From: an uncultured Gammaproteobacteria bacterium
GTDB lineage: Bacteria > Patescibacteriota > Microgenomatia > Levybacterales > UBA12049
Assembly: GCA_964474445.1 (NCBI GenBank)
Contig: CAYYSJ010000002.1
Coordinates: 53,610 to 117,609 of the forward strand
Reading direction: 5' to 3'
Length of the DNA stretch: 64,000 nt
Part shown: one piece after another, positions 48,993 through 62,237 of the stretch
Position numbering within the stretch: position 1 is the stretch's first letter
Layout of the letters: every line of letters starts with the position of its first letter
The notes under the pieces: generated by a model
Database searches by the model: none
What the model was told of the DNA's origin: nothing
The model's input: the letters and a program-made list of their open reading frames with translations, nothing else
Position numbers and translations under genes: made by a program

Positions 48993-49310
48993 ATGCAGTA
49001 TCCAGTACTTCTATTACAATTCTGGTATTTTACCGCACCAAAAGGTATTCTTGCCTATTTTGCATCGCTCAATGCCTCGTTTTTCCAACTGTTTTCAATA
49101 CCCCTTCTTTTACAAACATTCTTTAAACCATGGAAAAATGAGTATCGTGAGGGTTTGGTCGGTTTTTCTATTGCAATGGGAATTGTCGTAAAGTCTTGTG
49201 TTATCTTTGCTGGACTTGTCTTATTTGGTCTAGTACTTCTAGCTGAAACGAGTTTATTCATTGGTTTTCTACTTTGGCCTATTGCAACAGTCTATTTATT
49301 ATTTTTGTAA
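48993..49310 (+). CDS. Small membrane protein immediately upstream of the ClpB-like gene
   Basis: 105 aa, three TM helices. Its stop is 3 nt before the ClpB-like start. Confidence 0.35.
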   Translation: MQYPVLLLQFWYFTAPKGILAYFASLNASFFQLFSIPLLLQTFFKPWKNEYREGLVGFSIAMGIVVKSCVIFAGLVLFGLVLLAETSLFIGFLLWPIATVYLLFL

Positions 49311-49313
49311 TGT

Positions 49314-51674
49314 ATGGAATATTTTGCATCTTTGCACTATTTATATCGACAGTCCTGGGTAAGAATGGTAAGACTTCTTGTTCTGCTTGGGCTTAGTGGA
49401 TTTGTTTTACTTCATATACAAAACTTTGCATCAGTGAAACTTCTTCTTTTTATACTCTCACTATTTTTTATCAATGAAGTCTTCATTTCTTTTTCTCTCT
49501 CGCGAAAAATGCCCCTCTATAAAATTTCAGAAGAAAAAGATACTCTTCACAGTATAACGCTTGAGGCAATGGAAACATTGCTTCCCTCATCCACAAAAGT
49601 ATCTCTTACTAGGCTTTTAAAATACCCTCAAATCGAGTTTTTGTTGGGAAAAGCAATAATACAGAAAGAAGAAATACCCCTTACGGATATTGACAAAAAT
49701 GTACTTCTTGCAGAAGCGCGAAAACATGCAGAAACAGTGAAAGGAGCGTACGTTACAACAATAGATCTTGTTATTGCATATCTGCTTCTCACAGAAGACA
49801 AAACAAAGGTCTTGTTTAACAAGAAGATAAAAAAAGAAGATTTAGAAAATATAGCGTATTGGACGCATCTTCATTTTCCAGAGGAAGAACAAGAGAAGAA
49901 AACTCGAGTCACTTTTTGGGGTGAAGGTATAGGGCAATCCTTTGTATCAGGCTGGACTCTTGAAACAAAGAGGTACACCCAGGACTTTAGTAGTCTGGCA
50001 CTTCATAAGAAGCCTCTGCATGTAGAAAGAGAGAAAGAATATCGATTTCTTACAGAAACGCTTTCAAAAAAGGAGAATAACAATGTTATTTTAACTGGTG
50101 AAGTAGGAGCAGGAAAAGAAAGTTTGGTAGAAGCACTCGCAGTTGATAGCTTTATGGGGAGACTCAATCCTTCTCTGAACTATAAAAGAGTATTAGAGTT
50201 GTTGGTAGGATCACTCCTTGCGGGAGTTATGACCAAAGGAGAATTGCAAGAGCGGCTTGAGGCAATTTTACAGGAAGTATCTCATGCAGGAAATATTATT
50301 TTATATATTCCAGAGTTTCAAAGTGTTTTGGGATCATCATCTTTTGGAGTTGATATTTCAGATGTTTTAATACAATATCTTCGCAATGGCAAAATACCTA
50401 TTATCGGGACAATGACAGCAGCAAATTATAAATCATTCATGGAAAAAAGTACTCTGAGAGAGATGTTTGAGGTTATTACTCTTCCCGAACCCGATAAAAA
50501 ACAAGCAATGCAGATGCTCCTTCAGAAAGTATTTGAAATTGAAGAAAAATATCAGGTACACATTAGCTACCAAGCTGTTGTCACAGCTGTTGATTTGGCG
50601 GGCAAATATGTTGTGGACACAGTATTACCAGGGAATGCCGTTATCCTTTTAGAAGATACGGCGAATGCTATCGTCAATAAGAGAAAGGCAATGGTTGCTT
50701 CAGAGGATGTTATCGAAAAAGTAGAAAGTAAAACCAATATCCATGTGGGTGTACCCAAAAAAGCAGAAAAAGACCTCCTTCTTCATTTGGAAGAAAAAAT
50801 GCATGAGCGGGTTATTGGGCAGGATGGGGCAATTATTGCAGTTGCAGAAGCACTTCGTCGGCTTCGTGCAGGTATCGCGACGACAAACAAGCCTATCTCA
50901 TTTCTTTTCTTAGGTCCGACTGGTGTAGGTAAAACAGAAACTGCAAAAGCATTAGCTGCTTTGTATTTTGGGAAAGAGCAATCAATGCTTCGGTTTGATA
51001 TGAGTGAGTATAGTGATCCAACTGCGGTGATGAAGCTGTTAGGAGCTCCTGGGACAAGTCAGCGAGGAGAACTGACAGAGGCAGTACATGATAATCCTTT
51101 TTCCTTAATTTTACTTGATGAATTTGAAAAGGCAAATGAAGAAGTACTCAATCTTTTCTTGCAGGTTTTAGAGGATGGAAGACTCACAGATGGTCAAGGT
51201 AAGACTGTCTCATTTGCCAGTACGATTATTATTGCAACGTCAAATGCGGCGTCAGAGCTTATTCGTGAGGCTGTTAAGAAAGGAATAACAATCGATCACA
51301 CTTTTCAAAGCAAACTTCTTGAATTTTTACAACAAAAAGCTGTCTTCAAGCCTGAGTTGCTCAATAGATTTGATGCCATTGTCGCTTTTAGAAATTTGGA
51401 AGAGAAAGAAATAGAACAAGTGGTAAATCTGTTGTTAGCAGAGACGGTGAAAAAACTTGCCCAACAAGATATTACTCTTACCTATACGAGTGCAGTAGTA
51501 GATGCAGTGGCTACACAAGGGTATGATCCATCTTTTGGAGCTCGTCCTCTCAGACGATTTATTCAAGATAAAATAGAAGATATGCTTGCGAAAAAAATGC
51601 TCCAAGAATCTCTTTCGCGTGGTGCGAGAGTTACCCTCTCTGTGAATTCTTCAGGATCTATTATTGTAGGTTGA
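49314..51674 (+). CDS. ClpB/ClpC-like AAA+ chaperone with an N-terminal TM anchor and a degenerate first nucleotide-binding domain
   Basis: N-terminal two TM helices, then a Clp_N-like repeat. NBD1 Walker A reads GEVGAGKES and its Walker B reads ILYIPEF. NBD2 is canonical: FLFLGPTGVGKTETAKALA, LILLDEFEKAN, GARPLRR. No IGF/LGF ClpP loop was seen. Confidence 0.8.
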   Translation: MEYFASLHYLYRQSWVRMVRLLVLLGLSGFVLLHIQNFASVKLLLFILSLFFINEVFISFSLSRKMPLYKISEEKDTLHSITLEAMETLLPSSTKVSLTRLLKYPQIEFLLGKAIIQKEEIPLTDIDKNVLLAEARKHAETVKGAYVTTIDLVIAYLLLTEDKTKVLFNKKIKKEDLENIAYWTHLHFPEEEQEKKTRVTFWGEGIGQSFVSGWTLETKRYTQDFSSLALHKKPLHVEREKEYRFLTETLSKKENNNVILTGEVGAGKESLVEALAVDSFMGRLNPSLNYKRVLELLVGSLLAGVMTKGELQERLEAILQEVSHAGNIILYIPEFQSVLGSSSFGVDISDVLIQYLRNGKIPIIGTMTAANYKSFMEKSTLREMFEVITLPEPDKKQAMQMLLQKVFEIEEKYQVHISYQAVVTAVDLAGKYVVDTVLPGNAVILLEDTANAIVNKRKAMVASEDVIEKVESKTNIHVGVPKKAEKDLLLHLEEKMHERVIGQDGAIIAVAEALRRLRAGIATTNKPISFLFLGPTGVGKTETAKALAALYFGKEQSMLRFDMSEYSDPTAVMKLLGAPGTSQRGELTEAVHDNPFSLILLDEFEKANEEVLNLFLQVLEDGRLTDGQGKTVSFASTIIIATSNAASELIREAVKKGITIDHTFQSKLLEFLQQKAVFKPELLNRFDAIVAFRNLEEKEIEQVVNLLLAETVKKLAQQDITLTYTSAVVDAVATQGYDPSFGARPLRRFIQDKIEDMLAKKMLQESLSRGARVTLSVNSSGSIIVG

Positions 51675-51744
51675 TAGATAATGCTGAATCTGGTATACTG
51701 AACTGAGAAATTTAGGAATACAAAAGATCTTAAATCTTACTATT

Positions 51745-52755
51745 ATGCCAGCAGTACAACGAAGTGAATTCTATTTAGCACTTAACCAAGTCGCTACTGA
51801 GCGAGGGGTAAGTATTGACGTTATTCTTGAGACAGTTGAAGGAGCAATCCTTGCAGCATACAGAAAAGATCATCCTGGAATTGAAGCAGAAGAATATTCA
51901 GTCAAGCTTAATCCAAGCAGTGGAGAAGCACATGTCTATCACAATGGCAGTGATGTCACCCCTCCAGGTTTTGGTCGAATTGCAGCCCAGACAGCAAAAC
52001 AAGTTATTCTCCAAAAAGTGCGAGAAAAAGAGAAAGAAGCAATTTTAACAGACTTTTCAACCAAAATTGGTACTATTATGAATGGAACAGTTCTTAGATT
52101 TGCTGGACCTAATGTTATTGTTGACTTAGGTAAGACTGAAGCAATTATGCCTCCTCAAGAACAAATTTCTGCTGAAAGATATCACCAAAACCAAAGACTT
52201 TCTGTCTACATTGTTGAAATTCGAGAAGGTGTTCGAGGTCAAGAACTCGTTGTTTCACGATCTCATACTGGTCTTTTGGAAGGACTTTTCAAACGTGAAG
52301 TTCCTGAAATAGCGCAAGGAACAGTTGTTATTAAGGGAATTGCTCGAGAAGCAGGAAGTCGATCAAAAGTTGCCGTTGCATCCACACAAGCAGGTATTGA
52401 TCCAGTTGGAAGTTGTGTTGGACAGAAAGGTGTCAGAGTTCAGGCAATCATTCAGGAGTTTGGCGGTCTTGAGAAAATTGATATTATTCAATGGCAAGAA
52501 GATACTAAGGCATTTATCGCAGCTGCATTGTCTCCAGCAAAAGATTTAACAATTACCCTTGATTCTGATAATAGAACAGCATTTGTGGTTGCTCCAAAAG
52601 ACCAATTGTCAATTGCCATTGGAAAAGAGGGACAAAATGCACGTCTTGCATCAAAATTAACGGGTTGGAGAATTGAAATACGAGAAAATGAAAGTATAGG
52701 AGAAGAAGCAAAGGAAGAACATACAGAAGAAGTTGAAGAAGCAACGGTTGCATAA
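51745..52755 (+). CDS. nusA: Transcription termination/antitermination factor NusA (no C-terminal AR repeats)
   Basis: The N-terminal domain, S1 and two KH-like domains (VAVASTQAGIDPVGSCVGQKGVRVQAI; QLSIAIGKEGQNARLASKLTGWRIEI). 336 aa. Confidence 0.9.
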   Translation: MPAVQRSEFYLALNQVATERGVSIDVILETVEGAILAAYRKDHPGIEAEEYSVKLNPSSGEAHVYHNGSDVTPPGFGRIAAQTAKQVILQKVREKEKEAILTDFSTKIGTIMNGTVLRFAGPNVIVDLGKTEAIMPPQEQISAERYHQNQRLSVYIVEIREGVRGQELVVSRSHTGLLEGLFKREVPEIAQGTVVIKGIAREAGSRSKVAVASTQAGIDPVGSCVGQKGVRVQAIIQEFGGLEKIDIIQWQEDTKAFIAAALSPAKDLTITLDSDNRTAFVVAPKDQLSIAIGKEGQNARLASKLTGWRIEIRENESIGEEAKEEHTEEVEEATVA

Positions 52756-52850
52756 ATATGAGAAGTCTTAGTCTATTCACATTAGTCTTCTAATAATTCT
52801 TCTGTCGAAAAGGTACTAAAGTGACGTAAGTCACGTGTTTTCAAAAAATT

Positions 52851-54302
52851 ATGACAAATTTCCCACCAGTTGTATCAGTATTAGGCCATGTAGATCATGG
52901 GAAAACTACTCTTTTGGATGCTATCAGAAAAAGTAATATCGCCAATCGTGAACATGGGGGTATTACACAAAAAATTGGTGCATCCACTGTTGAAATAGTT
53001 CACGATGGAGAGAAAAGACTCATTACTTTTATTGATACTCCTGGTCATGAAGCATTTTCCTCAATGCGTAGTCGGGGTGCTCGAGTTGCAGATATTGGTA
53101 TTTTAGTTATTGCTGCTAATGACGGTGTGATGCCTCAAACAAAAGAGTCTATACAGCTTCTTAAAAATGCCCAAATTCCTTTTATTGTTGCCTTTACGAA
53201 GTCAGATCTACCAGAAGCTCAAGTCGAAAAAGTAAAACAACAGCTTTTAAAAGAGGATATTATCGTGGATAGTATGGGAGGGGAAGTCCCGTCTCTTGAA
53301 GTTTCTGCAAAGTCTGGTCACAATATAAAAGAACTCCTTGACCTTATTCTCTTAGTGTTTGAAATGAATTATACACTGGAACGTGAAACAGGAAATGTAG
53401 CCTCCAACAAGCCACTAGAAGCTGTCGTTATTGAATCCCGCCTTGATCCAAAGTCAGGAGCGAGAGCAACAATAGTGATAAAAAATGGCACCCTTTCAGT
53501 AAAAGATATGGTGGTTGCGAAGTCGACGACAACGTCAGGGCAAGCAACGGGTAAAGTGAGATCTCTTGTGACCGATACAGGTGCGATGGTGCAGTCAGCA
53601 ACTATTGGAGATGCAGTTGAAGTGTTGGGTTTTGAGGAAGTACCACCTGTTGGAAGTATTGTTAGAAAACAAGGAGAAGCAGCGGTTGGGTTGGTTGAGG
53701 CTCCTCATGTTACAAAAGCGAAAAAAGCAGAAGAAGAAAGTTTGTTGTCTCTTATTCTTGTTGCTGACACTCAAGGATCTCTCGAGGCTATTTTATATTC
53801 ACTTCCTGAAGGAGTAAATGTTATCTTGTCAAAGACAGGAGATGTGTCTGAAGCGGACGTCCTTATGGCTAAATCGGTAGGAGCGATTATCCTCACATTC
53901 AACCTCAAGCTCAAACCGGATCTTCAAAAATTTGCGTTGACTGAAAAAGTCTTACTCAAAAATTACACTATTATTTATGAATTACTGGATGAATTGCGAG
54001 ATGTTATGGAAGGGAAAGCATTAGCAGGTATGGAGCAGCTCTACGGTGCTGCACGTATTTTAGCCACATTTCCTTTTGAAAAGACTCAGGTTTTGGGAGT
54101 CAAAGTCCTTGAAGGAAGAATTGCAAAAGGTGATAAGATTCGTATCATGAGAGATGATATAGTAATTGGTGAAAGTAGTATTGTTTCTCTAAGACAAGGC
54201 AAAAACCCAACCTCAAAAGTGGAGAAAAATCAAGAAGCGGGTATTCTCATTTCTCCTTTTCTTGACTTTTCTGTAGGAGATGTGATACTATCTCATAGTT
54301 AG
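52851..54302 (+). CDS. infB: Translation initiation factor IF-2, minimal form starting at the G domain
   Basis: The start MTNFPPVVSVLGHVDHGKTTLLD is the P-loop at residue about 10. DTPGHEAF. FTKSDL in place of NKxD. The C-terminal beta-barrels are present. 483 aa. Confidence 0.9.
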   Translation: MTNFPPVVSVLGHVDHGKTTLLDAIRKSNIANREHGGITQKIGASTVEIVHDGEKRLITFIDTPGHEAFSSMRSRGARVADIGILVIAANDGVMPQTKESIQLLKNAQIPFIVAFTKSDLPEAQVEKVKQQLLKEDIIVDSMGGEVPSLEVSAKSGHNIKELLDLILLVFEMNYTLERETGNVASNKPLEAVVIESRLDPKSGARATIVIKNGTLSVKDMVVAKSTTTSGQATGKVRSLVTDTGAMVQSATIGDAVEVLGFEEVPPVGSIVRKQGEAAVGLVEAPHVTKAKKAEEESLLSLILVADTQGSLEAILYSLPEGVNVILSKTGDVSEADVLMAKSVGAIILTFNLKLKPDLQKFALTEKVLLKNYTIIYELLDELRDVMEGKALAGMEQLYGAARILATFPFEKTQVLGVKVLEGRIAKGDKIRIMRDDIVIGESSIVSLRQGKNPTSKVEKNQEAGILISPFLDFSVGDVILSHS

Positions 54303-54304
54303 TT

Positions 54305-55372
54305 ATGGATAATAACATGTTCCAGCGTCTTAAAGACCTGGTAACTCAACATCAGTCAATAGGTATCATTGTCCCTCCAAACCCAACCCATGATGAAATG
54401 GCCGCAGGTCTCGGTATGTATTTAGCGCTCAAACAAATGGATAAAAATGTGAGCGTTGCATGCCCAACAGATCCAACCGTTGCTATTTCATCCCTTGTTG
54501 GTATCGATAAGGTACAAAGAGCCTTATCAGGTGCAGGAGGAGATTTGGTTGTCACATTTCCTTATCGAGAAGGAGAAATTGAAAAAGTTTCTTATACTGT
54601 TGACAATGGACAGCTCAATATTGTTGTAAAAGCTGGTCAAAATGGCCTATCTTTCAGTCAGTCAGATGTCCAATTTCGACAAGGTGGAGCAATTCCTACA
54701 CTCATTTTTATGATGGGAATTACTGATCTGAATCAAATAGCAGGTGTTGTAAATCCAGCAGAAATGAGTGGAACAACAGTGGTAAATATAGATAACAAGC
54801 CAAGTAATACTGGATTTGGAGATGTCGTTCATGTTTCTCCAAGGTTCAGTTCCATTTCAGAAATGGTTGCAGATTTCTTGACCCTTCTTGAGCCACAAAT
54901 TGAATTAGATGTTGATACTTCCCAAAATCTTCTTTCTGGTATCCTATCTTCTACTGCTGATTTTCAAAATGGTAAAGGGAGTTATTTAGCGTTTGAAATG
55001 GCAGGTATCTTGATGAAAAAGGGTGCAGTTAGATCAGTGAATGGTAATTTTGCAAGTCCAACAACAACACAAATGCCAACAAATAACTATTTCCCACAAC
55101 AGCAGCCAGCGCCTGTTCAACCAGCTGTTCAACAATCAGTACAGCAACCCGTTCAGCAACCTCAACCGATGGCAATGCCTCAACAACCTGTGGCGCCAAT
55201 ACAACAGGCAACTGAGCCAATGCAACCTTTTGGTACAGTTCAGGGTGCTCAACCAGTTCAAAATGCACAACCTCAACAGCCAACTCAACCATTCGATCAA
55301 TCCCAGAATCAACAACAGCCTCCAGCTGATTGGTTAACTCCAAAAGTATATAAAGGAAGCACAGTAATCTAA
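54305..55372 (+). CDS. DHH/DHHA1-family (NrnA-like) protein with degenerate catalytic motifs and a Gln/Pro-rich C-terminal tail
   Basis: NrnA-like fold. The DHH motif is replaced by NIDNKPSN and GDTGRF by SSTADF. The C-terminal 110 aa are Q/P-rich low complexity (QQPAPVQPAVQQSVQQPVQQPQP...). Confidence 0.55.
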   Translation: MDNNMFQRLKDLVTQHQSIGIIVPPNPTHDEMAAGLGMYLALKQMDKNVSVACPTDPTVAISSLVGIDKVQRALSGAGGDLVVTFPYREGEIEKVSYTVDNGQLNIVVKAGQNGLSFSQSDVQFRQGGAIPTLIFMMGITDLNQIAGVVNPAEMSGTTVVNIDNKPSNTGFGDVVHVSPRFSSISEMVADFLTLLEPQIELDVDTSQNLLSGILSSTADFQNGKGSYLAFEMAGILMKKGAVRSVNGNFASPTTTQMPTNNYFPQQQPAPVQPAVQQSVQQPVQQPQPMAMPQQPVAPIQQATEPMQPFGTVQGAQPVQNAQPQQPTQPFDQSQNQQQPPADWLTPKVYKGSTVI

Positions 55373-55519
55373 ACTTCTCATCACCCTCATTTCTAACAGA
55401 GTCCCTATTTTGTTGTAACAATTTGTACCTAGCTCATTTTTGAGGTTTATCAAAAGAAATGAGATCAATAGATGCTATGAAACAGATAAAGTTCTAGGAT
55501 TGCGGATAGGAAGAAAACC

Positions 55520-55528
55520 TGCTATAAT
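55520..55528 (+). promoter_or_regulatory. Extended -10 promoter TGCTATAAT upstream of rpsO (11-nt leader)
   Basis: The same 9-mer as at 16293 and 17301. The ATG follows at 55540 with no SD. Confidence 0.45.
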
Positions 55529-55539
55529 ACATACACTTT

Positions 55540-55809
55540 ATGGTTCTCAATACAGTTCAAAAGCAAGATATTATTAAGCAATTCCGAACTCAAGACGGAG
55601 ATACAGGGAGTCCTGAGGTACAAATTGCACTCTTAACTCACAGAATTAAAGCTCTTATCGCACATTTACAAGGTCATGCACATGATAATCACAGTAGACG
55701 TGGTCTTTTGTCCATGATTGCAAAAAGAAGAAGACTTCTCAATTTCTTGGAGAAAGTTGATAAAGTACGTGCAAAAGATATTATTGAAAAGCTTGGTCTT
55801 CGAAGTTAA
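55540..55809 (+). CDS. rpsO: 30S ribosomal protein S15
   Basis: 89 aa. GDTGSPEVQIALLTHRIKALIAHL..HDNHSRRGLL S15 signature. Confidence 0.95.
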   Translation: MVLNTVQKQDIIKQFRTQDGDTGSPEVQIALLTHRIKALIAHLQGHAHDNHSRRGLLSMIAKRRRLLNFLEKVDKVRAKDIIEKLGLRS

Positions 55810-55906
55810 CATCGAATTTGCTTCTGTGTTGATAGTAGAAAAAAAAGAAAAAGTATTTTATAATTAAAAAGTTTTATAAAGAATAAAAGAACGAAAGATA
55901 TATATA

Positions 55907-58207
55907 ATGAAAGTTACCTCAAAATCAATTGAATTCGCCGGAAAAACACTCACATTTGAAACCGGAAAATGGGCACAACAGGCAACAGCAGCTGTGAGAG
56001 CACAGCTTGGTGACACTGTTGTGTTAGCAACTGTTGTTGAAGGAAAAGATAGAGAAGATTTAGGCTATTTCCCTCTTTCTATTGAATACGTAGAACGTCT
56101 TTATGCTGGTGGAAAAATTAAAGGAAGTCGTTGGGTAAAAAGAGAAGGACGACCCTCAGATGGAGCAGTATTATCTGGAAGATTGATTGATAGATCTATT
56201 CGACCACTATTCCCTAAAGAATTCAAAAAAGAAGTTCAGGTTGTTGTGACTGTCTTGTCCGTTGATGGAGAAAATGAACCAGATATTTTAGGACTCAATG
56301 CAGTCTCTGCAGCACTTGCCATGTCTCGGATTCCTTGGAAAGGCCCAGTTGGTGCTGTAAGAATGGGATATGTTCAAGCAGGTGACTCAGAAGATGCAGG
56401 GTTTTTGGTAAATCCTGGTGGAGCAGAACTCGATCTTTCAGAGTTAGACTTAGTTGTTTCACAGACACGAGAAAAGACGCTCATGATTGAAGCAGGAGCC
56501 TTACAGGTTCCAGAAGATGTCATGCTTGAAGCAGTAAAAAGAAGTCACAGTGAAACTACAAAGCTTCTTAACTTTATTGAGGAATTTGCAAAAGAAGCAG
56601 CTACGGGGACAAAACCAGTTATTGAAAAAGATCCAGCATTTGTCGAGTTGTGCCATCGCATCGATGAAAAATACAAATCAGACGTTCAAAACCTGATTAA
56701 ACAACAAGCTGCAAAAGAAGGTGGTCCGTCAACAGAAAGAGATGCCTTGATTGATAGGATTTTTGCAGATGAACAAGCAGCAAATCCTGAAGCTCCAACT
56801 GATAAAAAGACAATCAGTAAAGCAGTTGAATATGTCTTTTTCCAAACCATTCGAAGTAATGTATTGGACAAAGATGAGCGTGCAGATGGGAGAAAGTTAG
56901 ATGAAATTCGTCCACTTAGTGTTGAAGTTGGAGTCCTTCCAAGAACCCACGGTTCTGCAGTATTCCAAAGAGGCCAGACACAAGTTCTTACAGTTGCAAC
57001 TCTTGGCTCTGCTCGAATGGAACAGCTTATTGAGTCAGCAGAAGGAGAAGAGCGAAAAAGATATATTCATCATTACTCATTTCCTCCTTACTCTGTGGGA
57101 GAAGCAGGAAAAATTGGAATGCTTTCACGACGAGAAATTGGTCATGGGGCACTTGCAGAACGTGCACTCTTGGCAGTTATCCCATCTGCAGATGTTTTTC
57201 CCTATACGATGAGATTAGTCTCTGAAACACTTTCATCGAATGGATCTACATCAATGGCATCTACCTGTGGTTCAACGCTTGCTCTTATGGATGCTGGAGT
57301 ACCAATTCTAAAGCCCGTTGCTGGTATATCAGTTGGAAAGATGTCTTATGTTGATGAGAAAGGCAAAGTTACAAAATACAAACTGCTCACTGATATTATC
57401 GGACTTGAGGATTTTTCAGGAGATATGGATTTTAAAGTCGCTGGGACAACTGATGGAATCACTGCAATTCAGCTTGATGTGAAAGATGCAGGGCTAACCG
57501 TTGAACAAATTGAAGAAGTATTCCAAAGAGCAAGAGAAGCAAGACTGAAGATTTTGGATGTCATGCTTACAGCAATTACAGAGCCTCGTTCTACAGTAAG
57601 TGAGTACGCACCTAAAGTAGCAGTTGTTCATATCCCAGTTGAGAAGATTGGTGAACTCATTGGACCTGGAGGCAGAGTTATTAAAAATATCATTGCAACA
57701 ACAGGTGCAGATGTTGAGGTGCAAGATGATGGCACAGTGAGTATCTCAGCAGTGTCTGAGGATCAGTTACAAGCAGCTGTCTCATGGGTACAGGGGCTAA
57801 CACGAGAAGTCAAAGTTGGAGAGGTATTTGAGGATGCAGAAGTAAAAAGAATTTTACCATTTGGTGCATTTGTAGAATTTTTACCAGGGAAAGAAGGAAT
57901 GGTTCACGTTTCAAAGATGGCAGATCATTTTGTTCAAAATCCTGCAGAAGTTGTGAATATTGGAGATCGGGTTAAAATATGGGTTCAAGAAATTGATGAT
58001 CAGGGAAGAATTAATCTTTCAATGATTGATCCATCACAGCTTCCAGCACGTCAACCACGAGAAGATAGAGGTCCACGTGAACATCGAGAGTTTCGAGGGA
58101 ATGACCGAGGTGTAGAGAGACCAAAACATCCATTAGCAATGCAATTTGAACGAGAAAAACGACAACAAAAAAGACAATATGGTCCAAAGCGAAACTTCGA
58201 TAGGTAA
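55907..58207 (+). CDS. pnp: Polyribonucleotide nucleotidyltransferase (PNPase) with an Arg/Glu-rich C-terminal tail
   Basis: Two RNase PH domains, KH (GPGGRVIKNII) and S1 (GEVFEDAEVKRILPFGAFVEF). 766 aa. Confidence 0.97.
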   Translation: MKVTSKSIEFAGKTLTFETGKWAQQATAAVRAQLGDTVVLATVVEGKDREDLGYFPLSIEYVERLYAGGKIKGSRWVKREGRPSDGAVLSGRLIDRSIRPLFPKEFKKEVQVVVTVLSVDGENEPDILGLNAVSAALAMSRIPWKGPVGAVRMGYVQAGDSEDAGFLVNPGGAELDLSELDLVVSQTREKTLMIEAGALQVPEDVMLEAVKRSHSETTKLLNFIEEFAKEAATGTKPVIEKDPAFVELCHRIDEKYKSDVQNLIKQQAAKEGGPSTERDALIDRIFADEQAANPEAPTDKKTISKAVEYVFFQTIRSNVLDKDERADGRKLDEIRPLSVEVGVLPRTHGSAVFQRGQTQVLTVATLGSARMEQLIESAEGEERKRYIHHYSFPPYSVGEAGKIGMLSRREIGHGALAERALLAVIPSADVFPYTMRLVSETLSSNGSTSMASTCGSTLALMDAGVPILKPVAGISVGKMSYVDEKGKVTKYKLLTDIIGLEDFSGDMDFKVAGTTDGITAIQLDVKDAGLTVEQIEEVFQRAREARLKILDVMLTAITEPRSTVSEYAPKVAVVHIPVEKIGELIGPGGRVIKNIIATTGADVEVQDDGTVSISAVSEDQLQAAVSWVQGLTREVKVGEVFEDAEVKRILPFGAFVEFLPGKEGMVHVSKMADHFVQNPAEVVNIGDRVKIWVQEIDDQGRINLSMIDPSQLPARQPREDRGPREHREFRGNDRGVERPKHPLAMQFEREKRQQKRQYGPKRNFDR

Positions 58208-58327
58208 CCGCAATTTTCAATTTTTAGTTCTCAATTTCCATTTGATGTTCATTGCTTCAGTTTCAAAGAGTTCGATTGATGTCCTGTGAGATTTGATTAA
58301 AAATGGTAAATTGAAGATTGGAAATTT

Positions 58328-60013
58328 ATGTATAATAAAGATATGAACCAAGAGCAAGTACGTATTATCCCCCTCGGTGGGACAGGTGTTGTGACTCGTA
58401 ATATGTATGTCTATGAGTATCAAGACCAAATGCTGCTTGTCGATTGTGGGCTTGGGTTTGCAGATGAAACAATGCTTGGAGTAGATTTACTGCTCCCGGA
58501 TATATCCTATCTGCAAAAATCTCTTCAAAACGGTAAAAAAATTGTTGGGATGCTTATTACACATGGTCATGAAGATCATATGGGAGCACTTCCGTTTATT
58601 CTTCCAGAATTACCCGATTTTCCCATTTTTGCTACTCCTTTGACGGCAGCTTTAGCTGAGGAAAAATTAAAAAACTTTGGTATTGCCAGAAAAGTTCAAC
58701 CTATTCCATTTGAATCAGATCACCAGTTGCAACTTGGACCCTTCTCTGCAAATTTTATACGGGTCACTCACTCTGTTCCGGATACATCTCATATTTTTAT
58801 TCGTACTCCTATTGGAAATATTTACCACGGAAGTGATTTTAAATTTGATCTTACACCATTTGATAAGAAAAAAACTGATTTTGCAAGAATTGCCAAGTGT
58901 GGAGAATTAGGTGTTTTATTCTTACTATCTGACTGTCTTGGATCTGAAAGACCTGGGACAACTGGTTCTGAGGATAAATTAACAGATACAATTTATCGGG
59001 AAATGGAAAATGTGAAGGGGAAGTTTATTCTCACCACGTATTCATCTCACATTAATCGTATTAATCAGACATTACTTGCCGCTGAGAAGTTACACAAACG
59101 TGTTTGTTTTATTGGTCGGTCTCTTATCAAGACTGTCGATGTTGCAAAAAGACTTGGGTTAATCAGAATACCAAAAGGAATGGAGGTTCGAATGGATCAG
59201 CTACGGCAATATAAGGATGACCAACTCGTACTGTTAGTTGCAGGGTCTCAAGGACAAGAAAATTCCGCACTCACCCGGATTGCGACTGGAGAGCACAAAG
59301 AGGTCAAAATTACTCAACAAGATACCATTGTTTTTTCATCAGATCCAATTCCTGGGAACGAAATAATGGTCAATGCGCTTGTTGATAGCCTTTCTAAGAT
59401 AGGCGCACGAGTTATGTATTCTGATGTTTCTTCAGACTTCCATGTATCAGGACACGGCTCAGCAGACGAACTGATGTTGCTCATGGAGCTTGTAAGACCA
59501 AGAAAAATTTTACCTATTGGTGGAACACCAAAGCATATGCTTGCATATAGAAAGCTTGCACAAAAAGTAGGATTTGCTCCTCAGGATGTGTTACTTCCCG
59601 ACAGTGGACAGGAAATTGTTATAACAAGACAAGGTGCAACATTTGGACAGAGATACTCAATGAAAAATGTGTATGTAGACGAAATAAGTGGTGAAGAGAT
59701 AGAGGGATATGTATTGCGGGACAGGCAAAGACTTTCTCAGGATGGTGTTATTGCAATTATGGTTGAGGTAGATGCGGCAGCAGGTTCATTGGCTGACAAG
59801 CCTGATATTGTTGTGAGAGGATTTTCAGAAAAAGATGCAGAGGAGATGAGACAGGCGATCTCCCAAGAATTACAGAAAGTGCTTTCAGGCAAACAAGGAC
59901 AAGTAACAAATTGGATATACTTACGAAAAATGATAGGTGAAGTAACAGAAAAGCGAATTTTTAGAGATTTTAGACGCCGTCCCCTTATTCTTCCAGTAGT
60001 GATAGAGGTATAG
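58328..60013 (+). CDS. rnj: Ribonuclease J
   Basis: The metallo-beta-lactamase motif LITHGHEDHMGALP, a beta-CASP domain and a C-terminal domain. 561 aa. Confidence 0.9.
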   Translation: MYNKDMNQEQVRIIPLGGTGVVTRNMYVYEYQDQMLLVDCGLGFADETMLGVDLLLPDISYLQKSLQNGKKIVGMLITHGHEDHMGALPFILPELPDFPIFATPLTAALAEEKLKNFGIARKVQPIPFESDHQLQLGPFSANFIRVTHSVPDTSHIFIRTPIGNIYHGSDFKFDLTPFDKKKTDFARIAKCGELGVLFLLSDCLGSERPGTTGSEDKLTDTIYREMENVKGKFILTTYSSHINRINQTLLAAEKLHKRVCFIGRSLIKTVDVAKRLGLIRIPKGMEVRMDQLRQYKDDQLVLLVAGSQGQENSALTRIATGEHKEVKITQQDTIVFSSDPIPGNEIMVNALVDSLSKIGARVMYSDVSSDFHVSGHGSADELMLLMELVRPRKILPIGGTPKHMLAYRKLAQKVGFAPQDVLLPDSGQEIVITRQGATFGQRYSMKNVYVDEISGEEIEGYVLRDRQRLSQDGVIAIMVEVDAAAGSLADKPDIVVRGFSEKDAEEMRQAISQELQKVLSGKQGQVTNWIYLRKMIGEVTEKRIFRDFRRRPLILPVVIEV

Positions 60014-60059: not shown

Positions 60060-62237
60060 TTGAGATTCTTTATAATAAGAAGTATGGCCAAAAAACGTGG
60101 TGGAGGTCGTCGTAAAAAAGTACAACTTCGCAAAGAAACAATTTACACACTTTTTGCATTAGGACTTGTTGTTGTTGGTATTTTGCAATTTCTTTCTTTT
60201 TCAAGGCAAGGAGATGTTTTAATGACGGTTCAGCAAATGCTGGAGCAAAATTTTTCTTCAATGCAGTATCTTTTCCCATTTGTTTTTATTTTCATAGGAT
60301 TTCTCTTTTTCAGGTTTAAATTTTTCCTCTCCAAGCCGCATGTCACAATAGGATATATCATTACCTTTTTTTCTCTTGTTGGCATTCTCAAATCAGGTGC
60401 TGTAGGACGACATATGTTTCAGATTCTATCTGATATTTTAGGGAATGTTGGTTCAGATTTAGTATATATTGCTGGAGTATTTGTTGGACTTGTTGTTTTC
60501 TTTGATACCTCAATTGACGAATTGTTACAAGGATTTGTTGCTGTTCTCAATACCGTCCCAAAATTTATCCCATCAGGAGCTGTTTCTCTTTTCAAAAGCA
60601 AAAAGCCTGTCAAAGGGAAGGAATTAACTATTAAACAAGCAGGCCTTACGAATGAAGAGCCAAAGATTAATGGAAAAGATAAAACCATTTTCCCATCCTC
60701 CAAAATGGAAGATAAACCAGACTTGGTGGTGAAGAAAAAAGAGCAGGCGGAACTTATCTCAGATAAATTGGTAACGAATGTGTTGGAAAATGGTATGTGG
60801 GAAAATCCCCCGCTTTCATTATTGTCAGATAGTTCTGGTGCAAAAGCAGAAAGAGGTGACGTAAAGCGCATTGCACAAATTATTGAAAAAACGCTTGAAT
60901 CATTTGGTATTGCTGCACGAGTTGCTGAAGTAAATTTAGGCCCCTCCGTTACCCAGTATGCTTTAGAAATTGCTCTTGGGACAAAAGTAAGTAAAATTAC
61001 CTCTCTTGCTAACGATTTGGCGCTTGCAACTGAAGCACCTTCTGGACAAATTCGTATTGAAGCGCCTATTCCTGGACGATCTTTGGTAGGGATAGAAATT
61101 CCAAACAGATCCTTGGAAGTTGTACCGCTTCGTACTATGCTTTCTTCTCAAACAATGCAAAAAGCAAAGTCCAAACTCACAGTTGCTATGGGACTTGATG
61201 TGTCAGGCAATCCAGTTGTTGCGGACATTGCAAAAATGCCTCATGTTCTCATTGCAGGTACCACAGGATCAGGAAAATCATATCTTATGAATGCGTTTAT
61301 TTGTTCTATGCTTTTCAGAGCTTCTCCTCAAGAAGTAAAGATGATTTTAGTTGACCCGAAACGAGTTGAATTTACCCAGTATAACGGCATTCCTCATTTG
61401 TTAACACCTGTTATTGTTGAGCCAGAGAAAATTCTTTCAGCACTCAAGTGGGCGATGGGTGAAATGGACAGAAGATACAAGCTATTCGCTGAAAGAGGAG
61501 TGAGAAATATTGACTCATATAATGAGCTATCAGGCTTTCAAGCACTACCATACGTTGTTATCGTTGTCGATGAATTGGCAGATTTAATGATGCTTGCTCC
61601 TGTTGAGGTTGAAGATGCTATTGCGCGTTTAGCACAAATGGCACGCGCAACAGGAATTCACTTGGTTATTGCAACACAAAGACCTTCTGTCAATGTCATT
61701 ACTGGCCTTATTAAAGCAAATATTCCAACGCGTATTGCTCTGAATGTCTCTTCTCAAATTGATTCTCGTGTTATCTTAGATGGGCCAGGCGCGGAAAAAT
61801 TATTAGGTAGAGGAGATATGTTATATGTTCCACCAGATGCTGCAAAGCCGTACCGTATTCAAGGATCATATGTTTCTGAAAAAGAGGTGCAACGGCTCGT
61901 AGGCTACTTGAAGGAAAAAGCTCCTGAAGTTAACTATACCGAGGAAGTTACTCAACAACAGGTGAGTATTAAAGGGAAAAATGGTGGGGGTATATCAAGC
62001 GGTGGTGGAGAAGGCTTAGACAATTTGTTTGATGATGCTGTACGAATCGTATGTCAATATGATAAAGCATCAGCATCACTTTTGCAGAGAAAATTGTCTG
62101 TTGGCTATTCGCGTGCAGCAAAACTTTTGGATCAGCTCGAAGAAAATGGTATTATTGGACCGGCTGAAGGAAGTAAGCCACGAGATGTTTTAAGTAAGAA
62201 TGCTGATGAAGTACTGGCACAAATACACGGAGAATGA
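60060..62237 (+). CDS. ftsK: DNA translocase FtsK/SpoIIIE
   Basis: N-terminal 4 TM helices. The motor has Walker A GTTGSGKS and Walker B VVIVVDELADLMM. The C-terminal gamma winged-helix reads LFDDAVRIVCQYDKASASLLQRKLSVGYSRAAKLLDQLEENGIIG. It ends with TGA. Confidence 0.9.
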   Translation: MRFFIIRSMAKKRGGGRRKKVQLRKETIYTLFALGLVVVGILQFLSFSRQGDVLMTVQQMLEQNFSSMQYLFPFVFIFIGFLFFRFKFFLSKPHVTIGYIITFFSLVGILKSGAVGRHMFQILSDILGNVGSDLVYIAGVFVGLVVFFDTSIDELLQGFVAVLNTVPKFIPSGAVSLFKSKKPVKGKELTIKQAGLTNEEPKINGKDKTIFPSSKMEDKPDLVVKKKEQAELISDKLVTNVLENGMWENPPLSLLSDSSGAKAERGDVKRIAQIIEKTLESFGIAARVAEVNLGPSVTQYALEIALGTKVSKITSLANDLALATEAPSGQIRIEAPIPGRSLVGIEIPNRSLEVVPLRTMLSSQTMQKAKSKLTVAMGLDVSGNPVVADIAKMPHVLIAGTTGSGKSYLMNAFICSMLFRASPQEVKMILVDPKRVEFTQYNGIPHLLTPVIVEPEKILSALKWAMGEMDRRYKLFAERGVRNIDSYNELSGFQALPYVVIVVDELADLMMLAPVEVEDAIARLAQMARATGIHLVIATQRPSVNVITGLIKANIPTRIALNVSSQIDSRVILDGPGAEKLLGRGDMLYVPPDAAKPYRIQGSYVSEKEVQRLVGYLKEKAPEVNYTEEVTQQQVSIKGKNGGGISSGGGEGLDNLFDDAVRIVCQYDKASASLLQRKLSVGYSRAAKLLDQLEENGIIGPAEGSKPRDVLSKNADEVLAQIHGE

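Follow-up and report, generated by a model that had tools for sequence, protein, structure and literature searches.

A DHH-domain protein depleted of metal ligands and ending in a conserved peptide is encoded directly downstream of a minimal infB in Microgenomatia-type Patescibacteria

Bacteria of the candidate phyla radiation (CPR, or Patescibacteria) have pared-down ribosomes, and a survey published in 2025 credited them with only about half of the usual ribosome-biogenesis factors (PMC12641178). How such cells initiate translation and check the maturity of their 30S subunits with a minimal initiation factor 2 (IF2) is the question raised by the locus described here, which lies in a stretch of 64,000 nucleotides (nt) of contig CAYYSJ010000002.1 (assembly GCA_964474445.1, positions 53,610 to 117,609 of the forward strand; hereafter the window). 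Directly after infB, the window carries a gene whose product combines a degenerate DHH domain, a disordered Gln/Pro-rich linker and a conserved C-terminal peptide. Judged from its residues, this protein is almost certainly a non-hydrolytic DHH remnant, and it belongs to a large family that is undescribed in the literature searched. We favour the explanation that it is a non-catalytic adaptor tied to IF2/30S function, a reading to which we give about an even chance.

The N-terminal 245 residues were modelled with confidence by AlphaFold2 from 118 homologues (predicted local distance difference test, pLDDT, >90) and adopt the alpha/beta fold of a DHH N-terminal domain, with a five-stranded parallel sheet. 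The domain is acidic, with an isoelectric point (pI) of 4.7 and a net charge of -9. In the window protein, the Pfam DHH profile (PF01368) scored 19.9 bits, below its gathering cut-off of 28.1, the DHHA1 profile (PF02272) gave no match even at E<=10, an NCBIfam scan returned nothing meaningful, and no RbfA domain was matched with Pfam RBFA or NCBIfam. Past residue 245, the protein consists of disordered low-complexity sequence, with no DHHA1 domain and no GGGH motif. Its relatives also carry only PF01368, and many of them (280-320 amino acids, aa) are too short to accommodate DHHA1. Additionally, neither a paralogue nor a split or stand-alone DHHA1 gene was seen in the window or in the annotated neighbourhoods. 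Because only the N-terminal domain of the two-domain enzymes is matched, the NrnA-like two-domain layout proposed in an earlier interpretation of the DNA letters (the sequence-only reading) is wrong.

The catalytic motifs were assigned by residue-by-residue alignments to solved NrnA-type structures, including that of MSMEG_2630 (PDB 4ls9), and residues were counted over three groups: 120 close relatives, 146 divergent members and the 114 sequences of a sister branch labelled Roizman-, Woese- and Howlettbacteria (the Roizman/Woese branch). MSMEG_2630 binds Mn through Asp51, Asp110, His135 and Asp185, and its D134A and H316A mutants, the latter affecting the GGGH motif in DHHA1, are inactive (PMC4081065). 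In the window protein, IDHH is changed to IDNK (in NIDNKPSN), GDTGRF to SSTADF and PD(x)D to PTHD (in PTHDE). The only ligand kept is D30, the equivalent of Asp51, with counts of 120/120 in the close relatives, 143/146 in the divergent members and 114/114 in the sister branch. The first Asp of motif I has become T28 (T28-H29-D30), a position that holds S, T or N in almost every member. Of the other Mn ligands, Asp110 in motif II gives way to G138, the metal-binding His135 to N164 and Asp185 in motif IV to S216. Among the close relatives, D163 is invariant (120/120), Gly occupies position 138 in 119, N164 is present in 118 with a single His, K or R stands at 165 in 111, and A or S at 216 in 119. 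The Roizman/Woese branch has (T/S)xD in motif I, keeps the motif II Asp in 95 of its 114 sequences, reads D-R-H without exception in motif III (R in 114/114) and carries A or S at 216 throughout (114/114).

The family as a whole shares a set of losses: motif I is without its first Asp, DHH without its metal-binding first His and motif IV without its Asp, and DHHA1 is gone altogether. These losses are ancient and fixed in both major branches, not sporadic mutations, and the clade of the window has degenerated further. Mn/Mg-dependent phosphoesterase activity is predicted to be lost. The sequence-only reading had picked out the same motif changes and considered the protein probably not an active nanoRNase; the alignments bear out the former, and the substitution of three of the four Mn ligands, together with the missing DHHA1/GGGH, lends good support to the latter. 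The ligands were mapped through the alignment to 4ls9, which shows the losses at G138, N164 and S216 and the retention of D30.

The domain has also gained structure. In the family profile, residues 8-54 and 132-249 align with residues 8-54 and 78-191 of Thermotoga maritima TM1595, and residues 55-131 match only 23 residues of that protein, indicating approximately 54 extra residues in this region. The model places four extra strands here (80-84, 92-100, 103-110 and 123-127), forming a beta-rich insertion with the signature FPYxEGEIEKVSY, which is also present in the Roizman/Woese branch. The insertion is absent from canonical NrnA domains. On a commonest-residue scale computed over 135 diverse members, it is the best-conserved part of the DHH domain (0.66). 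Identity within the domain is 55-100% among relatives, and purifying selection outside the lost motifs is strong.

Beyond the domain, the sequence-only reading had described a Q/P-rich tail of about 110 residues, and its linker part (residues 246-338) does contain 29 Q and 18 P among 93 residues. AlphaFold2 predicts it to be disordered, with a pLDDT of about 50 and no secondary structure from residue 246 onward. In close relatives, the linker spans 47-148 aa with 25% Q and 20% P; over the whole family it ranges from 29 to 194 aa, with 15-25% Q, 13-20% P and from about 6% to about 22% charged residues, and the shortest members have about 25-30 linker residues. K and R together make up 2.8% of the linker in the clade of the window. 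Its conservation is 0.26. A short YFP(P/Q) motif (YFPQ in the window) begins about 18 residues after the linker does; its F263 and P264 are at least 90% conserved in the Levybacteria clade and not in the Roizman/Woese branch, and it may be a second docking site.

The linker leads to the most conserved segment of the protein, a C-terminal peptide that scores 0.82, compared with 0.57-0.66 for the domain. The strongly conserved stretch covers 14 residues (339-352). Its core, PxDWLxPK(V/I)YKGS, is followed by 3-4 variable residues up to the C-terminus and was found in 116/118 close relatives, where 4-5 residues separate the conserved Gly from the end. The generalised form [DE]W[LF]xPK[IV][YF] was recovered in 130/146 and 97/114 divergent members, and the Trp and Pro of the peptide are as invariant as D30. 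A six-frame search of the window and 80 related loci (about 1.2 Mb) found the motif in no other open reading frame (ORF), that is, once per locus, and Pfam gave no match on isolated tails. In the model of the window protein, the peptide has a pLDDT of about 65; in that of the short-linker homologue P0141, it reaches 73 and forms just a three-residue helical turn. Neither model showed a confident contact of the peptide with its own domain. Such a combination, in which a disordered linker of variable length joins a globular domain to a strongly conserved terminal peptide, is the hallmark of a tethered docking motif.

Among solved structures, the best match of the peptide (55319-55360) was the extreme C-terminus of mS38, a protein of the small subunit of the mammalian mitoribosome (PDB 5aj3_n, residues 183-196), aligning KEAPAGWQTPKIYL against PPADWLTPKVYK (PAGWQTPKIY vs PADWLTPKVY), with the mS38 segment lying three residues from the end of that protein. 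The match is not significant (E 1.2 for the peptide and E 0.87 with the whole-family profile), was not recovered by a tip-only profile built from 80 diverse tips, and is probably due to chance. The conserved DUF1713 part of mS38 runs along h44 near the decoding centre, which would fit a 30S-binding peptide; the match was nonetheless set aside as unsupported and is not used here.

A candidate partner for the peptide is suggested by the genomic setting. In the 85 loci with enough upstream sequence (L038 being included through ORF extension), infB lies directly upstream in every case, the distance between the two genes running from about -4 to +80 nt and being mostly below 40 nt, and the encoded IF2 is 470-490 aa long in 85/85. 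In the window, the infB stop codon TAG (54300-54302) is followed by 2 nt and then by the ATG of the DHH-remnant gene. The IF2 of the window matches Pfam GTP_EFTU from residue 8, and IF2_N and the other N-terminal domains are absent. On the other side, rpsO was found within 300 nt downstream in 53 of 78 loci, with pnp and rnj coming next. Members that are 30-35% identical have RmuC and RecJ, or a methyltransferase, downstream and no pnp or rnj nearby; they keep the junction to an IF2 of 479-485 aa, in one case with a 4-nt overlap. Since the downstream genes change and the infB junction stays, the conserved linkage is to infB and not to pnp/rnj. This adjacency suggests coupled expression.

Two of the loci with changed downstream genes (L085, 10714-12390; L086, 4472-6148) encode, just downstream and together with RmuC, a complete RecJ with DHH, DHHA1 and RecJ_OB domains, which indicates that an intact DHH-superfamily nuclease co-exists with the DHH remnant in loci of the Roizman/Woese type. 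In the divergent locus L082, truB was located about 5 kb downstream.

The standard bacterial gene order is nusA-infB-(rbfA-truB)-rpsO-pnp. The window follows this order minus rbfA and truB, neither of which was found between infB and rpsO (54303-55539), and the gene studied here stands in their place, as the sequence-only reading had stated. In a survey of >30,000 genomes, Dojkabacteria, WWE3 and Microgenomatia were reported to have lost der, era and rbfA (PMC12641178). In mycobacteria, the genes of the NrnA' clade (MSMEG_2630 and Rv2837c) are co-transcribed with infB and rbfA (PMC4081065). This operon precedent suggests that the present family descends from such an operon-resident nanoRNase of the NrnA' type.

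The family is large. A word-indexed search retrieved 1004 homologous clusters at 90% identity, and an exhaustive profile search of 1.84 billion representatives matched, among clusters formed at 50% identity, 416 at E<1e-30 and 3354 at E<1e-10; the best 150 profile matches all consist of a full-length domain followed by a tail. A pattern-limited scan of species representatives located the family in 157 GTDB species. Numbers of this size place the ORF well outside what chance would produce. Where titles were informative, they mostly named Levybacteria/Levyibacteriota, other Microgenomates and unclassified Patescibacteria, and many taxon labels are evidently wrong. Relatives are named 'hypothetical protein', 'DHH family phosphoesterase' or 'nanoRNase/pAp phosphatase', and most members of the Roizman/Woese branch carry a precomputed PF01368 match. 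The sequences P0287, P0291, P0294, P0315, P0319, P0382 and others are among those named nanoRNase/pAp phosphatase (c-di-AMP/oligoRNAs hydrolase) or DHH family phosphoesterase. Enzyme names on relatives that lack DHHA1 and are poor in ligands are probably over-annotation. No literature connecting DHH proteins with CPR/Microgenomates bacteria was found. With its DHHA1-less, ligand-depleted domain, insertion, disordered arm and docking peptide, the family represents a new variation on the architecture of DHH-superfamily proteins.

As a non-catalytic adaptor tied to IF2/30S function, the protein would be made together with IF2, plausibly by termination-reinitiation, and would act in translation initiation or in late 30S maturation. 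Its acidic domain might grip one partner through the insertion and the remodelled face of the former active site, and the flexible linker would allow the C-terminal peptide to reach a second partner, for which IF2 or the 30S subunit is the likeliest candidate. Standing in the rbfA slot of a lineage for which the loss of rbfA, era and der has been reported, the protein may compensate for lost assembly or initiation functions; alternatively, it may compensate for the missing N-terminal region of IF2. In Escherichia coli, IF2 also contacts NusA through its N-terminal domain I (PMC12297416), a contact that the IF2 of the window, which has no N-terminal domains, cannot make. Sharper versions of this proposal are doubtful. 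We think it unlikely that the protein specifically recruits IF2, or that it replaces RbfA or the IF2 N-terminal region. Equally tentative is the idea that Microgenomatia-type CPR bacteria possess a dedicated IF2-coupled adaptor in which a dead nanoRNase domain carries a flexible arm and a C-terminal peptide. These would recruit or tether the minimal IF2, or attach to the 30S subunit, much as the P-stalk and the eIF1A tail capture IF2/eIF5B in other organisms, and the adaptor would substitute in trans for the IF2 N-terminal domains and/or for RbfA, the lost checkpoint factor of 30S maturation.

Several points weigh against the adaptor. D30 and D163 are kept, and in the Roizman/Woese branch the motif II Asp and the second His (D-R-H) survive as well, on account of which a ligand-binding, even weakly catalytic, site is conceivable. 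Moreover, the gene might follow infB for reasons of history, as a legacy of an NrnA' ancestor that has no functional meaning. The former point leads to a reading that we regard as unlikely, in which the remodelled site (D30, D163, N/R164, K/H165, N168 and conserved Ser, Glu and Gln residues) still accommodates, perhaps in the absence of metal, a ligand that carries phosphate (for example nanoRNA, pAp, a cyclic dinucleotide or the end of an RNA), the protein being a sensor or a residual enzyme that may keep weak one-metal hydrolysis, and the tail transmitting or localising the signal. Residues at the former motif positions do rank with the most conserved of the family (N161, D163, N168, G172, S183, S185, E186, D204, Q207, G212 and T217), the exchange of acidic ligands for neutral or basic residues (G, N/R, K/H and A/S) could favour direct phosphate binding, and annotation pipelines label relatives as DHH phosphoesterases or nanoRNases, but the domain is acidic overall and three of its four Mn ligands are lost. 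In addition, substrate is held in DHH/DHHA1 enzymes by the GGGH-bearing DHHA1 domain, for which no stand-alone substitute was seen in the annotated neighbourhoods, and either of the substitutions H316A and D134A suffices to kill MSMEG_2630 (PMC4081065). The latter point, that the gene's place behind infB survives from an ancestral infB-rbfA-nrnA' operon, would turn the protein into an adaptor with a task outside translation, for example in delivery to the ClpB/ClpC-like AAA+ protein encoded upstream of nusA, as a membrane or envelope tether, or in self-association. The NrnA' clade of Actinobacteria occupies the same operon without any known IF2 interaction, and a ClpB/ClpC-like gene precedes nusA in most Levybacteria loci. 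Protease adaptors of the SspB kind would be equally well matched by the combination of a globular domain, a linker and a C-terminal peptide. We nevertheless rate this possibility as quite improbable: inertia alone is hard to credit for an infB junction kept down to 30% identity while the downstream genes are reshuffled, the ClpB-like gene does not persist as a neighbour in divergent loci, no second ORF bearing the peptide turned up in about 1.2 Mb around the loci, and AlphaFold2 does not dock it on its own domain.

The sequence-only reading had itself leaned towards an RNA-binding or scaffolding subunit that organises a degradosome-like assembly, here with PNPase and RNase J, and had pointed to the operon context with infB, rpsO, pnp and rnj. 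Such a role would agree with the rpsO-pnp genes downstream in 53/78 loci (<300 nt) and rnj further on in most Levybacteria, and with a disordered tail and short conserved peptide that recall the C-terminal half of RNase E. It has also been put forward that nanoRNases evolve in concert with the machinery of RNA degradation (PMC4081065). The linkage breaks down, however, in divergent members, which have other genes in place of pnp/rnj and still keep the domain, the peptide and the infB junction, and the proximity of pnp says little because nusA-infB-(rbfA-truB)-rpsO-pnp is how bacteria normally arrange these genes. In the clade of the window, the linker carries almost no charge (K+R 2.8%) and has no Arg-rich RNA-binding segments, the domain has a pI of 4.7, and there is one dominant peptide with one clade-specific YFP motif in place of several microdomains; the degradosome organiser is thus very unlikely and is not upheld here. 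The C-terminal peptide, the insertion in the DHH domain and the tight coupling to infB had been missed in that reading. One could also regard the Q/P-rich tail as the functional part, phase-separating into condensates or serving as an 'entropic bristle', with the DHH remnant as an oligomerisation module only. The linker is rich in Q (15-25%) and P (13-20%) in all branches and is disordered in the AlphaFold2 model, but its length (29-194 aa) and charge (6% to about 22%) vary, its conservation is 0.26, the peptide and the domain are far more constrained, and only about 25-30 linker residues are left in the shortest members, so that a tail-centred function seems highly improbable. The adaptor tied to IF2/30S function remains the reading that we prefer.

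The features of the locus are listed in Table 1. The N-terminus MDN is invariant among relatives, which supports the chosen ATG start. No Shine-Dalgarno-like sequence lies at the usual distance from this ATG, the only candidate being a GGAGA 27 nt upstream. An Rfam scan of positions 51000-58500 gave no match, and no convincing terminator was found between nusA and pnp in a promoter/terminator scan. A fusion of IF2 to the downstream protein by frameshifting was considered and rejected, as a TAG stands in the downstream frame at 54296-54298, a slippery site is absent, and the length and frame of the gap differ between loci. Two alternative-frame ORFs (55029-55421 on the minus strand and 55041-55337 on the plus strand) overlap the Q/P-rich coding stretch and are most likely by-products of its CAA/CAG/CCA-rich low-complexity sequence, not genes. 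This stretch also produces a local negative GC skew.

Several neighbouring products have features of their own. The ClpB/ClpC-like protein begins with about 65 hydrophobic residues that are probably membrane-spanning, and its second AAA module scores strongly and its first only weakly; a 105-aa hydrophobic ORF (48993-49310, plus strand) ends 4 nt before its gene. NusA is short, without AR1 and AR2 domains, and ends in an acidic tail (…GEEAKEEHTEEVEEATVA). PNPase extends past its S1 domain by a C-terminal stretch of about 60 residues (approximately 707-766) rich in Arg, Glu, Lys and Pro (…PARQPREDRGPREHREFRGNDRGVERPKHP…KRQQKRQYGPKRNFDR).

Table 1. Features of the DHH-remnant gene and its surroundings, in positions of the window
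Feature	Position	Strand	Detail or basis
ClpB/ClpC-like AAA+ protein, 786 aa	49314-51674	+	Pfam
nusA, 336 aa	51745-52755	+	Pfam
infB, upstream; minimal IF2, 483 aa, starting at the G domain	52851..54302	+	Pfam
Whole gene: degenerate DHH domain, disordered linker and C-terminal peptide	54305..55372	+	355 aa plus stop, ATG start
NrnA-type DHH N-terminal domain, residues 1-245	54305..55039	+	Acidic
D30, sole Mn ligand kept (Asp51 of MSMEG_2630)	54392..54394	+	Alignment to 4ls9
Beta-rich insertion in the DHH domain, residues 80-127 (DLVVTFPYREGEIEKVSYTVDNGQLNIVVKAG..GLSF)	54542..54685	+	
G138, replacing the motif II Asp (Asp110 of MSMEG_2630)	54716..54718	+	Alignments
D163-N164-K165, replacing DHH; N164 at the metal-binding His135	54791..54799	+	Alignments
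S216, replacing the motif IV Asp (Asp185 of MSMEG_2630)	54950..54952	+	Alignments
Disordered Q/P-rich linker, residues 246-338	55040..55318	+	AlphaFold2 and composition
YFP(P/Q) motif, residues 262-265	55088-55099	+	Clade-specific
Tandem repeat in the linker, 12 nt x2.9	55127-55161		
C-terminal docking-type peptide, residues 339-355 (PPADWLTPKVYKGSTVI)	55319..55369	+	
rpsO	55540-55809	+	Pfam
pnp	55907-58207	+	Pfam
rnj	58328-60013	+	Pfam
ftsK	60060-62237	+	Pfam

Being conserved, retained in the sampled lineages and always joined to infB, the family is a candidate lineage-specific component of translation. It offers a concrete and testable handle on translation initiation or 30S maturation in reduced bacteria, a function that we infer. 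It would also be a clean case of an enzyme turning into an adaptor, with metal ligands and a whole domain lost and an insertion, a linker and a docking peptide gained. In addition, the nanoRNase and DHH labels given to its members probably overstate their function and could mislead metabolic reconstructions of CPR bacteria.

Among known systems, the closest are the NrnA' nanoRNases, MSMEG_2630 and Mycobacterium tuberculosis Rv2837c/CnpB (PDB 5jju), which share with the window protein a position downstream of infB in a nusA-infB operon. They differ in having DHHA1 with its GGGH motif, in the residues equivalent to Asp110, His135 and Asp185, which are replaced in the window protein, and in lacking its insertion of about 50 residues, its disordered linker and its C-terminal peptide; rbfA, part of the NrnA' operon, is missing from the window locus. 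T. maritima TM1595 (PDB 5o1u) and Staphylococcus NrnA/Pde2 (8iu7 and 3dev) are likewise two-domain Mn-dependent enzymes, with motifs I-IV intact. Non-catalytic scaffolds of the DHH superfamily are known in Cdc45 and the archaeal GAN/RecJ-like proteins of the CMG helicase, but these belong to the RecJ-like subfamily, retain a DHHA1-like domain, serve in DNA replication and do not have the tail-plus-tip architecture. RbfA occupies the same gene slot directly after infB as the DHH-remnant gene, but has a different fold from DHH, and a functional replacement of RbfA is speculation. In the archaeal and eukaryotic P-stalk, a dimeric N-domain is joined by a flexible linker to a conserved hydrophobic C-terminal peptide that recruits aEF1A, aEF2 and aIF5B, the homologue of IF2 (PMC5887453). 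The window protein has no sequence or fold relationship to the P-stalk, and the likeness is one of architecture only, namely the design of globular domain, linker and terminal peptide that it shares with P-stalk aP1/P1-P2, the SSB C-terminal tip and the eIF1A C-terminal tail.

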